Position numbers and translations under genes: made by a program. From the NCBI GenBank assembly GCA_003251635.1, contig QKEW01000008.1, forward strand, positions 33,489-97,488: DNA of 64,000 bases, read 5' to 3'. The first letter of the stretch is position 1, and each line of letters opens with the position of its first letter. The notes beneath the pieces were generated by a model. That model made no database searches, was not told the origin of the DNA, and worked only from the letters and a program-made list of their open reading frames with translations. Below, piece after piece: positions 34,367-42,731 of this stretch. This DNA is from a bacterium. Its GTDB lineage: Bacteria > Patescibacteriota > Minisyncoccia > Moranbacterales > GWC2-37-73.

Positions 34367-35146
34367 CTAAAAACTAACTTGTTTCCCAGAAAATCTCTCT
34401 TTTTTATCAATTTCCGGCAATAATTTCCAAACTAAATTGAAAAGATGCTTCAAAGTGTCGTGAATTTCAATACCTTCAATTATCAAACCAATTTCTTCCT
34501 TAGCAGAAATCATCGCCACGTGCTGATGACCATAAATATCAATTTCCACTGAAAAAGGAAAATCTTGCTGATCAATAAGCTTGGTCGCTCGCCTGTGCAA
34601 TTGATCATTTTGAATATAGTCCCGCAATAAACTTTTATCATTTGGCCCTATCGCCCTGGCGTGCACCCCCTTTAGAATTCTCCTTTTGACATAATCATCC
34701 ACCCATTCTTTCCCTAGAATGTCCACAATATCATAGGAAAAAAATCCCAAAATTTCTTTTCCCGGCTGTCTCAATGTATCTTCATAAACTTCTTTGAGCC
34801 CATCTCTTCCTTCATAATAGCGCACCTTGGGCTTGCCAACTTTAGAATTATGAATTGACTGAAGCTGAGGCAATATTTCAGAAAACATCCTCTCCTTATT
34901 TTTCATTTCCCGAAGAATTTTTTCCGGTGCTTCCCCGACAAAAAACCTTTTCTTGCCCTTCATTGCCTGAGAAACCATGCCCTGTTCGATTAATTCCAAA
35001 AGAACATTGTACGTCGTTGTTCTTTTGATGTGAGATTTTTTGGAAATTTCAATAACATTGGCACTGCCCAATTCCAAAGCCGCCAAATATACGTCGGCTT
35101 TTTTGCCAACCAATCCCAGTGAATTTAATACCGATTTTACCTCCAT
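34367..35146 (-). CDS. TrmB-family transcriptional regulator (paralog 1)
   Basis: N-terminal wHTH LGLVGKKADVYLAALELGSANVIEISKKSHIKRTTTYNVLLELIEQGMV. C-terminal TrmB sensor-like domain. Confidence 0.7.
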   Translation of the reverse strand: MEVKSVLNSLGLVGKKADVYLAALELGSANVIEISKKSHIKRTTTYNVLLELIEQGMVSQAMKGKKRFFVGEAPEKILREMKNKERMFSEILPQLQSIHNSKVGKPKVRYYEGRDGLKEVYEDTLRQPGKEILGFFSYDIVDILGKEWVDDYVKRRILKGVHARAIGPNDKSLLRDYIQNDQLHRRATKLIDQQDFPFSVEIDIYGHQHVAMISAKEEIGLIIEGIEIHDTLKHLFNLVWKLLPEIDKKERFSGKQVSF

Positions 35147-35341
35147 TTTAATTATATTTAATCTTTTTGACCACTGTTTTCGTCAACATTTAAAGAATAC
35201 CACAGGGTCTTTATTATGTCAATTTTGGCTTATTTTAAGAGTTATACACTAAAATCGATATTTACTTTTATTGAAAATTGACTTGTTTTATGGACATTTT
35301 TCAGAATTAATTATAAAATTGTATGTTATTAAAAAATTTGC

Positions 35342-35417
35342 GACAGGGTAGCTCATTGGTAGAGCACGTCCATTTCATACAAGGACGAGGCAGGAGGTTC
35401 AATTCCTTCCCCTGTTA
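35342..35417 (+). tRNA. tRNA with anticodon CAU (Met/Ile2 type) and an atypical enlarged anticodon arm
   Basis: Acceptor GACAGGG/CCCTGTT, D-arm GCTC-ATTGGTA-GAGC, T-arm GGAGG-TTCAATT-CCTTC. There are 11 nt (ATTTCATACAA) between the 5-bp stem halves CGTCC/GGACG. The core loop TTCATAC is closed by an extra T-A pair and an A-A mismatch. Confidence 0.5.
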
Positions 35418-35419
35418 CT

Positions 35420-36517
35420 ATGTCAAAAAGCAATTGGTACAACGATATAGAATCCGAAATTTCCAACTTAACTTCCCTGGGTCTTTTAAAGGCGCTTAAT
35501 AAATTTAAAAGATCAGAAAGAACAATATTAGCCAATCTTTTCATAAAGAAAATAAACCAAAACAAAAATTTCCGTCCTCTGGTTTTCTATGTGGGGTATT
35601 GCCTGGCTAAAGGTCAAAAATTGATCGGCATCGAATTACTGCCGGAAAAAGAAAAACTTCTTATAGGTGATATAACTGCGGCCCTGGAAATTGAAAACAT
35701 TTCAACTTATTATTTTAATCATTACTTAGACAACAAATCCGATATAAAAAATAAACAAAATGAAAAAAATCGCGTTTTAGCCGGAATGTTATGTAGAAAT
35801 ATTCAACAAGAAATAATTGAGGAGTTAGACGTCAATACTCGAATTAAATTTAAAATAACCAAAATTCTCAGACAAATTGATCAAGACATCACAAAAGCCC
35901 AAATTCACGAAATTAACACCGGGATTTTTGAAAATATGGGTGAATTTTCAGATGAAAAAGAGTTTCGGGATGTCTATTTTGAAAGATGTCGAAAAATCAG
36001 CGGACAGTTTTACGGACGCTGCGCTGAAATAGGTTACATAATCGGATCAAATAGCACAGCCAGATCTAAAGATAAACAAATGATAAAAAATTTTTACACC
36101 GAAATGGCCACTTTAGGACAATTTGGAAATGATATTGGAGATTATGCGCTTGCCGATACTCATAGTGGAACGATTGAAAAAAATTTCTACAAAGATTACG
36201 GCAGCGACTTTAAGAATCAGCGCCTAACTTACCCGAATTATTTGTTGCTAAAAAGACTTATTAGCCCAAAAGATGAAGAAATCGTGACTTCAATTTTAAA
36301 AAAAGGATTTACTAAACAAACAATACCTGTTTTTATTAAACTAATGAAAAAATTAGAAATCTTTGATGATTCTTTCTTGCTTCTAAACAATCGCTTCAAT
36401 CAAATCAAAAAAACATTGACGCTACCAAGGTCTGAATTAAGAACACTTGTCTCCAGTTCTGTTATAGTTTTTAGATCCAATAAATTATTAAATTCCGTGA
36501 AAAATTCCCTAAAATAA
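35420..36517 (+). CDS. Isoprenoid (trans-isoprenyl diphosphate/terpene) synthase-fold protein with degenerate Asp-rich motifs
   Basis: RPLVFYVGYCLAKG (FARM-region context), NHYLDNK in place of DDxxD, and GQFGNDIGDYA in place of the second GxxFQxxDDxxD. Its start codon is 3 nt after the tRNA 3' end. Confidence 0.45.
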   Translation: MSKSNWYNDIESEISNLTSLGLLKALNKFKRSERTILANLFIKKINQNKNFRPLVFYVGYCLAKGQKLIGIELLPEKEKLLIGDITAALEIENISTYYFNHYLDNKSDIKNKQNEKNRVLAGMLCRNIQQEIIEELDVNTRIKFKITKILRQIDQDITKAQIHEINTGIFENMGEFSDEKEFRDVYFERCRKISGQFYGRCAEIGYIIGSNSTARSKDKQMIKNFYTEMATLGQFGNDIGDYALADTHSGTIEKNFYKDYGSDFKNQRLTYPNYLLLKRLISPKDEEIVTSILKKGFTKQTIPVFIKLMKKLEIFDDSFLLLNNRFNQIKKTLTLPRSELRTLVSSSVIVFRSNKLLNSVKNSLK

Positions 36518-36538
36518 AAAACTCAAAGTAAAGAATCT

Positions 36539-41244: not shown

Positions 41245-41490
41245 ATTTATTCGTCATCATCCGACTACACTATCTTAGAAAATTATACCTTATTTGTCAA
41301 TATTAAGAGCATTTTTATTCATATCCTATAATTTTTGTCGATATAGATTGAATATATTTTATTTCTGTCGCATACTTGCTTGTTGCGCACAGATTGGGAG
41401 TGAACTTTAACAACATAAGGAAGAATAACATGGACACCAAAATCTTATTGGAAGCAATGCCAAAAAACAACAAGATTCATCAGAAGGAGT

Positions 41491-41687
41491 GAACTACGAC
41501 CGAAAAAGAAAAACTAAAAGAAATAAAAGAAGCAGCTAAAGGCTTTATTTCAGCTGCCATTGTTGTAATGTTAGTAGTAATCTGCCTAAGCAGGTATTTT
41601 CCTCAATCTGACTTATTTTTTGTAGGCATAATTTTTATAGGTTCCTTTCTGGGATCCTTGCTGAGCAAAATTTTTGAGAAAGATTAG
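41491..41687 (+). pseudogene. Homolog of the two-TM peptide at 37812..38009, lacking a canonical start (ATG replaced by ACG)
   Basis: TTEKEKLKEIKEAAKGFISAAIVVMLVVICLSRYF...GSFLGSLLSKIFEKD aligns to the 37812 gene. The aligned initiator position is ACG, preceded by an in-frame TGA. The RBS AAGGAG is retained. Confidence 0.4.
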
Positions 41688-41716
41688 GTTCGCAAACAAC
41701 AAAAAGGAGACTAATC

Positions 41717-42268
41717 ATGATCAGAAAAAATGTTAGCCTTATTTTCCTAAATAAACAATCTAAAAAAGTTAGCAACAGAGAAGCGACGAGAAAAAAGCAG
41801 ATTCTAAGCGGCGAAGACAATTTTCGTCCACTAACAGCTCAGACGATAATAGCACATGCAAAAACACGGGCTAAAAAAGGAAAACGACCTTCTATGGCTT
41901 ACTATGGCACTGCCAATCCGCGCGAAGCTTACAAAAAAGCTATTGAGCTGGTCCGTAATGAAAAAGAAATATTTCACATAAGTGATCTATTGTCTATTTA
42001 TCATATGAGAATACTAGCCCTGCGCGGGGTGATCGCACTCTATCAAGGTATTCATTTCTTAAGTGATAAGCGGCCGCTTACATGTGATCTGGGAAGCAAG
42101 GAGCTCTATAAATGTTTACGCAGACACCTCAGATCAGAACTTCCATTTCTCAAAGAAATTGTAATTCCCGAAATTAGCTCAATGGAGGAAGCGAGACAAT
42201 GGATCACATTGCTCGAAAATGAATACGGGGCCCTCCATGAAGTTTCACGTATAAAAAACAGTGGGTAA
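41717..42268 (+). CDS. Hypothetical basic protein (183 aa)
   Basis: RBS AAAGGAGA. No motif recognised. Confidence 0.45.
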   Translation: MIRKNVSLIFLNKQSKKVSNREATRKKQILSGEDNFRPLTAQTIIAHAKTRAKKGKRPSMAYYGTANPREAYKKAIELVRNEKEIFHISDLLSIYHMRILALRGVIALYQGIHFLSDKRPLTCDLGSKELYKCLRRHLRSELPFLKEIVIPEISSMEEARQWITLLENEYGALHEVSRIKNSG

Positions 42269-42530
42269 ACTGTCTAAACTAATTACCCAAAGCCTGCGAT
42301 CCCCACGCATTAAAATCTCTCGGCTCGCAAAGTGGCAAAAAGAATTCGATGAAATGGAAGACCAAACAATCAAGAATGTAGGGGATTTGAATTATATCAG
42401 CGATCTCAATGCTGCTCTGGAAATCCTAAACAGTGATCCACTACTGCACATAAAAACTGCCGTCGCCTCTTTTATTGAGAAAAAGCAGAGAAGAATCGAA
42501 GATATATTCGATACCACAAAATTAACCTGA
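42261..42530 (+). CDS. Hypothetical protein (89 aa)
   Basis: Overlaps the upstream gene by 8 nt (operon). Followed by the terminator hairpin at 42550..42580. Confidence 0.4.
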   Translation: MGKLSKLITQSLRSPRIKISRLAKWQKEFDEMEDQTIKNVGDLNYISDLNAALEILNSDPLLHIKTAVASFIEKKQRRIEDIFDTTKLT

Positions 42531-42731
42531 AAAAATCTCTTAAAATTTAAGCCGGAGCGTAAACGCCCCGGCTTTTTCTTATTATTTGCATCTTGTCTAA
42601 CTAAAAAATTCTTTACTTGAAACAAAAACTGCCGCTTGAGCTGCTTAGTTAATACGGCCTGCCCCGTAGTAATTTGTACTCAAATTTACTGCTGGGGTTA
42701 GAACTGGATTTATGAAAAAAGAGCTTGTTGT

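Follow-up and report, generated by a model that had tools for sequence, protein, structure and literature searches.

What does a row of TrmB-type regulator genes do when nearly every one of them faces a different set of small genes? We investigated this question in a 64-kb stretch of DNA (contig QKEW01000008.1, positions 33,489 to 97,488; hereafter the window, numbered from its first letter) from a bacterium of the order Moranbacterales, within the candidate phyla radiation (CPR). The five regulators are named T1-T5 and the genes facing them c1-c5. All five lie on the minus strand as paralogs with a PF01978 domain, four in tandem and the fifth at 52.5 kb. The array exceeds chance, with five paralogs of one family in 64 kb and 14 terminator-like sites against 6.4 ± 2.5 expected; promoter-like sites (36 against 27.9 ± 5.7 expected) are not significant alone. 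We consider it probable that this is an array of autoregulated local repressors of the TrmBL2 type, each paired with a divergent, lineage-specific and short-lived accessory operon.

A regulator with a divergent operon is an ordinary layout, and the TrmB family is known. What appears to be new is the site-specific use of the TrmBL2 architecture in bacteria, its expansion into arrays in CPR bacteria, an operator that seems to be conserved phylum-wide, and stable regulators set against apparently rapidly replaced orphan cargo. Transcriptional regulation in CPR bacteria is almost unstudied, and no paper linking TrmB to Patescibacteria or the candidate phyla radiation came up in a full-text literature search.

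Related loci were taken from a scan of GTDB representative genomes (32 loci) and from a metagenome scan (19 loci). About 20 kb was looked at per related genome, conservation was judged within these sampled flanks, and operators were sought in the resulting 633,841 bp. Gene maps of the related loci were made with a crude longest-ORF (open reading frame) caller. The window itself was analysed from its ORF list, in the coordinates already used by an earlier reading of the same DNA (the original prediction), and a second gene caller run on an identical Logan contig predicted most of the facing genes (c2a to c4a). All regulatory statements below, on operators, repression and targets, are inferred from sequence.

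Family, fold and genomic setting of the regulators

The original prediction had described four consecutive modules and a fifth further right, each with a TrmB-family regulator, in one case a different winged helix-turn-helix (wHTH) protein. The ORFs were found where it had placed them. Four regulators matched PF01978 at 39-59 bits, and the third (39001-39687) was borderline at 26.2 bits against the Pfam cut-off of 25.6. When T3 was compared with the family by hhalign, the wHTH and the C-terminal domain aligned and the coiled-coil segment was missing (E 8.7e-4, probability only 23%), and T3 is best read as a degenerate member of the TrmB family. T4 and T5, predicted to be about 60% identical, share 64% identity over 248 aa, and the remaining paralog pairs 22-38%. 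Recent tandem duplication of whole modules was rejected, because the regulators are only this similar and their orthologs in other genomes are distinct. The most likely start of T2 is M10 (37318), on a nearly leaderless mRNA, the equivalent Met being the start of an 88%-identical ortholog.

In TrmB, the residues that contact DNA are Tyr50 and Asp51 (PMC4158304). The recognition-helix Tyr (Y46) is invariant in the five window paralogs and 59 relatives. The residue that follows it is Asp in at least 90% of the T4/T5 group, and N, H and N in T1, T2 and T3. An AlphaFold2 model of T4 built on the 59-sequence alignment (pLDDT 92) consisted of a winged helix, a single long helix (residues 75-100) and an alpha/beta domain; the long helix, between the wHTH and the C-terminal domain, is the predicted coiled-coil dimerisation helix. 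The top Foldseek matches of this model were TrmBL2 (5box, E 7.8e-15) and TrmB (E 7.6e-11), and chains of 5box, 5bpd and 5bqt matched at E 8e-15 to 4e-13 over 262-270 alignment columns. The global TM-score against TrmBL2 was low (0.39) because the domain orientation differs. The C-terminal domain also matched PLD-fold proteins.

The TrmB effector domain PF11495 gave no match at E ≤ 0.1 in any paralog, the proteins being 228-268 aa long. The NCBIfam equivalogs for TrmB and TrmBL1 scored 28-33 bits against cut-offs of 600-650, and the TrmBL2 equivalog NF041141 scored 21.3 bits against 530. These comparisons and the model indicate that the regulators have the TrmBL2 architecture, that is, a wHTH, a coiled coil and a PLD-like domain without the sugar-binding subdomain, and are not TrmBL2 orthologs. 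Two candidate identities were rejected: a TrmBL2 ortholog, as the equivalog score is far under its cut-off, and a classical sugar-responsive TrmB, as both the effector domain and a transporter neighbour are missing. Many polar residues of the C-terminal domain are invariant across the 59 relatives, which suggests a conserved functional, possibly ligand-binding, site.

The regulators belong to families found well beyond this genome. T4 has 266 homologs, mostly about 60% identical, and the named ones come from Candidatus Moranbacteria, Parcubacteria and Falkowbacteria. Identity within the T4/T5 orthogroup is 52-80%, and T5 is 57-73% identical to its orthologs in other genomes. T1 has orthologs (63-65% identity) in two loci, L007 and L039, where T1-type and T4/T5-type genes again lie a few kb apart. 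The metagenome scan yielded 19 relatives of T2 at 62-78% identity, the range for T2 relatives as a whole reaching 88%, and a metagenome scan for T3 found none. Four loci (L004, L005, L007, L014) have 3-7 TrmB paralogs clustered within 20 kb. In other genomes the regulators adjoin housekeeping genes, namely those for Dus, Obg, RNase HII, PolA and TsaE, and a search with the TrmB alignment found no relative in 2.9 million viral contigs. We read the regulators as old, separately conserved orthogroups, apparently expanded in Moranbacteria and Parcubacteria.

Two neighbours of the regulators were recorded in passing. RNase HII commonly follows T2-type regulators co-directionally (L047, 10801-11409, and six further T2-ortholog loci); the window T2 has lost this neighbour, and the convergent c1 is in its place. 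A desulfoferrodoxin-type gene (33900-34289; Pfam Desulfoferrod_N and Desulfoferrodox, matched on the identical Logan contig) follows T1 on the same strand, 77 bp downstream.

Candidate operators and the facing operons

Each regulator had been credited with its own TTGACA promoter. This held for T1, T2, T4 and T5, and T3 has TTGACT instead; each -35 box is accompanied by a plausible -10 box, as in sigma-70-like promoters. In the T4/T5 orthogroup, the palindrome TAGTCG-N8-CGA(A/C)TA directly follows the -10 box, both in the window and in every sampled ortholog, and it is conserved out to Komeilibacteria- and Saccharibacteria-labelled bins. The only zero-mismatch sites in the window are those of T4 and T5 themselves (41248-41267 and 53251-53270; O1 in Table 1). 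Across the 633,841 bp, 26 sites matched at least 11 of the 12 half-site positions; 25 of them were directly upstream of a T4/T5-type gene and one was inside such a gene. A second, weaker site (O2) lies 78-104 bp upstream in 9 of the 23 T4/T5-group genes (T4, T5 and 21 orthologs). In the two window copies and seven of the orthologs, the divergent -35 box is at the same time one half-site of O2, so the same protein would repress the facing operon too.

The other orthogroups carry elements of their own. The candidate T1 operator is kept at the same position in both orthologs (GTTGACGATAATGGTGGTCAT in L007 and GTTGACGGAAAGTAACGACAA in L039), the pattern common to both after the -10 box being GTTGACG-N-(G/C)GNCA(A/T), and no T1-type operator was found in the window beyond its own site. 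T2-type promoters have TGTAA(A/G)T-N5-6-TTGACACAA at the -35 box, conserved in orthologs. The T3 palindrome covers the start codon and -10 box of T3 and borders directly on the -35 box of c3a, the two promoters standing back to back. Each orthogroup thus appears to have its own palindromic operator at its own promoter, in the geometry of autorepressed local regulators that would also control the back-to-back promoter. This placement supports the divergent co-regulation that had been proposed, although binding is here predicted from motif and position.

Orientation around the regulators is strongly biased. The upstream gene was divergent for 45 of 56 family members (80%) compared with 294 of 755 genes overall (39%; Fisher p = 1.4e-9). 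Together with the paralog clusters of the four Patescibacteria loci, these results show that a regulator with a divergent operon is a recurring pattern, a point that the original prediction had proposed to check. Its description of the cargo as variable was borne out as well. The 100 proteins of the divergent operons fell into 85 BLAST clusters, 72 of them singletons, and a homolog in another sampled locus was found for 27% of cargo proteins, a smaller share than the 45% seen for the remaining flanking genes (p = 7e-4). With lengths restricted to 80-250 aa, the values were 20% and 43% (p below 1e-3).

A Pfam scan of 82 divergent-operon proteins from 32 related loci left most of them without a domain. 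The recurrent exceptions were methyltransferases (6) and radical-SAM/SPASM enzymes (4) beside small peptides, and in one case a distant Peregrinibacteria relative faced a branched-chain amino-acid ABC transporter. Sugar-transport operons beside the paralogs, which would have pointed to the classical TrmB role and which the original prediction had named as a refuting finding, were looked for in these loci, and no sugar transporter was found among the 82 proteins. Window cargo had relatives in about 60 related loci (tblastn and jackhmmer) only for c2d (L041, L043) and d5 (L011, L016), and comparison with PADLOC, PHROGs, Pfam and NCBIfam returned nothing above threshold. There was no similarity between c2a and c3a or between c2c and c3b, indicating that modules 2 and 3 do not carry paralogous cargo. 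We conclude from these comparisons that the cargo is mostly orphan and that its genes appear to come, go and be exchanged at a much higher rate than the regulators.

The one window cargo protein with a conserved link to TrmB, kept in three genomes, is c2d. A search of 5.8 billion protein clusters gave only 2 homologs, 68% and 41% identical. The L041 operon opposite an 88%-identical T2 ortholog encodes two different small membrane proteins and then the 68% c2d homolog; in L043, the 41% homolog comes first in the operon divergent from a TrmB-like gene. Between the window and L041, pN was 0.18 and pS 0.83, indicating purifying selection and hence that c2d is a genuine gene. A c2d profile had no match in the PDB, and relatives of c2d were absent from the viral contigs. 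The co-directional gene d5 also has homologs 1-4 kb from T5-type TrmB genes, in L016 (59%) and L011 (40%).

Two further observations concern the related loci. At the place of T3, downstream of the c2d homolog, L041 has a different regulator-like gene (1623-2243) with a PaaX central Cas2-like domain (PF20803, 75.7 bits). In L014 (7475-9756), L018 (7713-9690) and L007 (7909-9725), a T5-type regulator faces a small gene for a two-transmembrane (2-TM) protein or peptide and a radical-SAM/SPASM enzyme. These three operons also encode a conserved peptide of about 61-67 aa ending ...GVYSMYV... and a methyltransferase, and they resemble a biosynthetic cluster for ribosomally synthesised and post-translationally modified peptides (RiPPs).

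Individual cargo genes, module boundaries and nearby, possibly mobile features

The coordinates of all features are collected in Table 1.

Table 1. Regulators, candidate operators, facing genes and module boundaries in the window
Feature	Position	Strand	Description
T1	34367..35146	-	259 aa, TrmB family, T1 orthogroup; PF01978 38.8 bits
T2	36539..37318	-	TrmB family; PF01978 58.7 bits; ORF open to 37345
T3	39001..39687	-	228 aa, divergent, borderline TrmB-like; PF01978 26.2 bits (cut-off 25.6)
T4	40489..41244	-	251 aa, T4/T5 orthogroup; PF01978 55.0 bits
T5	52500..53249	-	249 aa, T4/T5 orthogroup; PF01978 45.7 bits
Candidate T1 operator	35168..35187	-	GTTGACGAAAACAGTGGTCA; just downstream of T1 -10 box
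Candidate T3 operator	39686..39708		Perfect 9-5-9 palindrome, ATATGTACA-TTAAT-TGTACATAT
Candidate T4 operator O1	41248..41267	-	TAGTCGGATGATGACGAATA; 4 nt downstream of T4 -10 box; zero mismatches to TAGTCR-N8-CGAMTA
Candidate O2, module 4 (weaker)	41335..41354		87 bp from O1; overlaps divergent -35, TTGAAT-17-CATACT
Candidate T5 operator O1	53251..53270	-	TAGTCAAAAAAAGACGACTA; zero mismatches
Candidate O2, module 5	53341..53360		90 bp from O1; overlaps divergent -35, TTGAAT-17-TATACT
tRNA-Met(CAT)	35342..35418	+	ARAGORN; Rfam 53.8 bits; gene divergent from T1
c1	35420..36517	+	365-aa orphan, 2 nt after tRNA-Met
c2a	37517..37729	+	70-aa soluble orphan; GAGGAGG ribosome-binding site; called on identical Logan contig
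c2b	37812..38009	+	65 aa; two transmembrane segments (hydrophobic stretches in sequence)
c2c	38043..38363	+	106 aa, Cys-rich, C-x10-C ... CPVC; no family match
c2d	38376..38870	+	162-164-aa soluble orphan
c3a	39782..40063	+	93-aa soluble orphan; ribosome-binding site AAGGAGGAG
c3b	40081..40320	+	79-aa orphan; CxxC...HxC motif
Decayed c2b copy	41496..41687	+	Start ATG -> ACG; ribosome-binding site and reading frame kept
c4a	41717..42268	+	183 aa; residues 40-178 a predicted DUF7736-type domain (phage-associated)
c4b	42261..42530	+	Possible 89-aa ORF, GTG start; no homologs; not called on identical Logan contig
d5	52144..52449	-	101 aa; co-directional with and downstream of T5
c5a-c5b-c5c operon	53432..54997	+	Three polytopic membrane orphans (hydropathy)
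Module 2 right boundary	38937..38999		Bidirectional hairpin H (38937-38966) and short repeat E (TAGTTAATACGG..TTAGAAC, 38979-38999)
Module 3 right boundary	40355..40467		Hairpin H (40355-40385) and long repeat E (40397-40467)
Module 4 right boundary	42645..42720		Long repeat E

The strong AAGGAG-type ribosome-binding sites that had been described were present before c2a, c2b, c2c, c3a, c4a and c5a. The proposed layout of a regulator facing a small-protein operon was found in the other modules but not in module 1, where T1 faces a tRNA-Met gene and a single 365-aa ORF, c1. A promoter-like site precedes the tRNA gene (35291-35319), and an Rfam search of 34.0-43.8 kb at a relaxed threshold found only the tRNA. 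The c1 protein scored 22.9 bits against the polyprenyl-synthase family PF00348, below the cut-off of 27; it had no PDB, NCBIfam or PHROG match and is absent beside the T1 orthologs. We also noted that c1 has no ribosome-binding site of its own and is probably co-transcribed with the tRNA, which would leave a leaderless mRNA after tRNA 3' processing.

In module 2, c2a had no family match and is absent from the related T2 locus L041, and c2c may be a zinc ribbon, judging from its Cys spacing; c3b, the other protein that had been read as a zinc ribbon, is likewise a candidate on Cys/His spacing only. The status of c4b as a gene is uncertain. In module 5, the membrane proteins were polytopic by hydropathy, as expected, and the c5a start at 53432 is backed by a ribosome-binding site, the ORF opening at 53411.

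The c4a protein has 17 relatives among 1.84 billion representatives (phmmer). In an alignment of c4a with 16 phmmer homologs (E 7e-50 to 1e-3), 12 of the 17 sequences matched PF24875 and 11 matched phrog_15963. c4a itself had no Pfam match at threshold, and its extra N-terminal region is common to only some relatives. An AlphaFold2 model of c4a (pLDDT 85) matched DUF7736 proteins of Brevibacterium and Mycobacterium phages at E 2e-5 to 2e-4 with TM-scores of 0.65-0.71 (target-normalised), and no solved structure matched. Membership of c4a in DUF7736 is therefore transitive and structural, and we treat it as predicted. No relative of c4a was found in 50,697 phage genomes (tblastn) or in the 2.9 million viral contigs.

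The predicted 2-TM gene with a decayed copy was confirmed. About 270 bp around c2b (37756-38024) are duplicated in module 4 (41444-41702) at about 75% nucleotide identity, the start codon having changed as listed in Table 1, and the duplication ends exactly ahead of the ribosome-binding site of the next gene (38024 and 41702). The decayed copy has a dN/dS of about 0.57. The two terminators that had been called identical cover the hairpin H copies (38937-38969 and 40355-40387) and agree at 31 of 33 positions (94%). Repeat E (TAGTTAATACRG...TTAGAAC) has three copies in the window, only at the right boundaries of modules 2, 3 and 4, and the combined H and E element is about 75-110 nt long. The boundary element can be written TAGTTAATACRGCCTGCCCCG ... 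GGSTTAGAACTGG with a variable central hairpin, and lies just 3' of the next minus-strand gene. Neither E nor H was found in other sampled loci or in viral contigs, and RNA folding of E was no better than that of shuffled sequences (z +0.3 to -1.9). The c2b copy and the H and E elements are 75-94% identical and the regulators only 22-38%, indicating that these elements spread later or are under constraint. Inside the array no recombinase was found, tyrosine recombinases not having been scanned across the whole window. We regard cassette-like exchange within this genome as a lead, not as a mechanism.

Several further features lie to the right of module 4. A large serine recombinase (47084-48559; Resolvase, Recombinase and Zn_ribbon_recom), the only recombinase seen, is located 4.4 kb away. 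A perfect 91-nt inverted repeat (46851-46941 and 48463-48553) brackets it. This repeat is contiguous with a 150-nt, 99% inverted repeat (43831-43980 and 46705-46854) around three orphan genes of 30% GC (44019-46315), and a tRNA-Gly gene abuts the right end. The whole segment (43831-48622) looks like an invertible or mobile segment, or like an assembly that mixes inversion variants. Beyond it, two group I introns lie on the minus strand between tRNA genes (48762-48977 and 49470-49710; Rfam 83.6 and 86.9 bits), with an HNH-endonuclease ORF (48996-49361) between them. One intron is flanked by tRNA-like fragments, a D-arm (49708-49727) and a tRNA 3' end (49402-49440), which suggests intron-split tRNA genes that ARAGORN did not call.

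Competing explanations and comparison with known systems

We propose that each regulator would bind as a dimer, possibly a tetramer, to the palindromic operator specific to its orthogroup. With that operator on or just downstream of its own sigma-70-type promoter, binding would result in autorepression. In the T4/T5 type, the weaker upstream operator with its half-site in the divergent -35 box would bring the facing operon under the same repression, possibly by looping, until a signal, presumably sensed by the well-conserved PLD-like domain, relieves it. The operons controlled in this way would encode small lineage-specific accessory proteins, among them membrane peptides, Cys-rich proteins, the DUF7736 phage-type protein and the c2d family.

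Several points weigh against this proposal. The operators are deduced from where they lie and how well they are conserved; a second operator could be made out in only nine T4/T5-group genes and was not identified for T1, T2 or T3. T4/T5 (about 60% identity) and its near-invariant operator are conserved across a phylum beside neighbours that are not, and the real targets could be elsewhere in the genome, of which about 20 kb was seen in each case. The closest structure, TrmBL2, is a non-specific chromatin protein (PMC4158304) and has no known ligand. Sixteen T2 orthologs (62-78% identity, with the upstream flank on the contig) face other genes and have no c2d nearby, indicating that the pairing of regulator and cargo is not stable. 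Finally, the longest-ORF caller inflates orphan counts in the cargo and background sets alike.

Some of these points lead to an explanation in which the neighbours are incidental: the TrmB-like proteins would be global or chromatin-like, or act on distant genes, and autoregulate locally, while variable genes gather in permissive intergenic space. The conserved regulator and operator beside changing neighbours, the chromatin protein as the nearest structure (PMC4158304), the lack of a second operator in 14 of the 23 T4/T5-group genes and the closest c4a homolog, which has no adjoining TrmB gene (L063), are all compatible with it. Against incidental neighbours stand the divergent orientation at twice the background frequency (80% vs 39%), the O2 half-site shared with the -35 box of the divergent promoter (both window copies, seven orthologs) and the T3 palindrome set between back-to-back promoters. 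T2 and c2d have also stayed linked where the cargo is only 41% identical, and the 634 kb scanned held no extra strong operator away from the regulators. We therefore consider this explanation unlikely, while giving it some weight. A different idea starts from the array of autoregulated repressors and adds that TrmB-type repressor genes are fixed landing pads for the capture of orphan or phage-derived genes in CPR bacteria. Such genes would be swapped between flanks (a c2b-like leader and H+E) and come at once under a ready, signal-responsive repressor. We hold this idea as speculative and quite unlikely to be right; if true, it would amount to a regulator-anchored trial of accessory genes, similar to integrons or hot spots, through which episymbionts might, for example, attach to a host, exclude phages or compete.

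The array had also been likened to a defence or immunity island, in which a regulator keeps variable anti-phage, anti-competitor or immunity effectors silent until needed. Hypervariable cargo that includes small membrane proteins, the one phage-type protein (DUF7736) and the repeated boundary elements at modules 2-4 would fit such an island, as would the serine recombinase, HNH gene and group I introns nearby. So would the low GC content, which is 34-37% between 34 and 44 kb; much of the window has about 40%, but some other stretches also come close to 37-38%. Closer comparison gave the likeness no positive evidence. A PADLOC-DB v2 search of nine cargo proteins (5027 models, E ≤ 0.1) gave no match, in agreement with the claim that no cargo belongs to a known defence family, and the regulators matched only the wHTH parts of the CasR, Csa3 and CARF models. 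There is no nuclease, ATPase, NTPase or other enzyme-sized effector. The regulators are conserved chromosomal genes in housekeeping settings, and in other genomes the genes opposite them encode methyltransferases, radical-SAM/SPASM enzymes, RmuC or nothing recognisable. A defence island is thus very unlikely, and the locus reveals no new defence system. Much of the same evidence, namely the DUF7736/PHROG-type c4a, the low GC, the duplicated c2b with the repeated boundary elements, and the tRNA genes, large serine recombinase (47084-48559) and long inverted repeats nearby, could indicate the remnant of an integrated mobile element or prophage, with the wHTH proteins as element repressors and the small genes as moron or early genes. 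Structural, replication and packaging genes are missing, however, and the window cargo proteins themselves have no meaningful PHROG match. The viral searches described above found no relatives of the regulators, c2d or c4a, and the T1, T2 and T4/T5 types have orthologs in many genomes, with T1 and T4/T5 clustered in L007 and L039 as well. We give a mobile remnant hardly any weight.

An array of autoregulated TrmBL2-type repressors would have several uses. The 20-bp motif TAGTCG-N8-CGAMTA could predict regulons in thousands of CPR genomes, and the TrmBL2 architecture would appear to be usable for site-specific regulation in bacteria. If the regulators control the facing operons, they mark the accessory genes with which organisms that do not grow in isolation probably respond to their environment or host, and the operators, in operator-reporter constructs, would be a handle for finding the inducing signals.

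Among known systems, integron arrays and defence hot spots are comparable to the window in having a row of units with variable cargo. Further similarities are the H+E element, which recurs at the right ends of modules 2, 3 and 4, and the exchange of cargo in modules 2 and 4, where a left flank (c2b) and a right flank (E) are conserved. Unlike integrons, the window units carry their own promoter and regulator, and neither an integron integrase nor an attC-like structure was found in the array; the boundary element was not found outside this genome, and there are no defence genes. DUF7736 (PF24875) is a phage-associated domain of unknown function, whereas c4a is chromosomal and in a CPR bacterium.

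TrmB is encoded beside the operon that it represses (PMC4158304). TrmB and TrmBL1 (Tgr) resemble the window regulators in the PF01978 domain, the recognition-helix Tyr(-Asp), the dimerisation helix and palindromic sites. The Thermococcales proteins, however, are 338-341 aa long with PF11495 and act on sugar ABC transporters and glycolytic genes through TGM-type motifs, whereas the window half-sites are TAGTCG, TTGAC and TGTACA and no sampled relative has a sugar transporter beside it. TrmBL2 (TK0471/PF0496), which also acts as a global repressor, is closer, with a wHTH, a long coiled-coil helix and a PLD-like domain without the sugar subdomain, in 264 aa compared with about 250 aa here. This archaeal protein is without about 70 aa of the sugar-binding part and represses when bound at a promoter (PMC4158304). 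Identity in the structural alignment is about 20%. TrmBL2 is an abundant chromatin protein that coats coding and intergenic DNA non-specifically, whereas the window proteins are bacterial, stand behind sigma-70 promoters in multi-paralog arrays, and have orthogroup-specific 20-bp palindromes almost only at their own promoters, which argues for site-specific binding.

MarR, TetR and PadR divergons differ from the array in protein family and effector domain. The apparent targets in the window are mainly small orphan proteins and not efflux pumps or catabolic enzymes, its regulators stand in a tandem array, and the targets turn over between close relatives. In mechanism, these divergons nevertheless offer the most likely model: an autoregulated wHTH dimer, with palindromes over back-to-back promoters in a short shared intergenic region and targets that are often membrane proteins.

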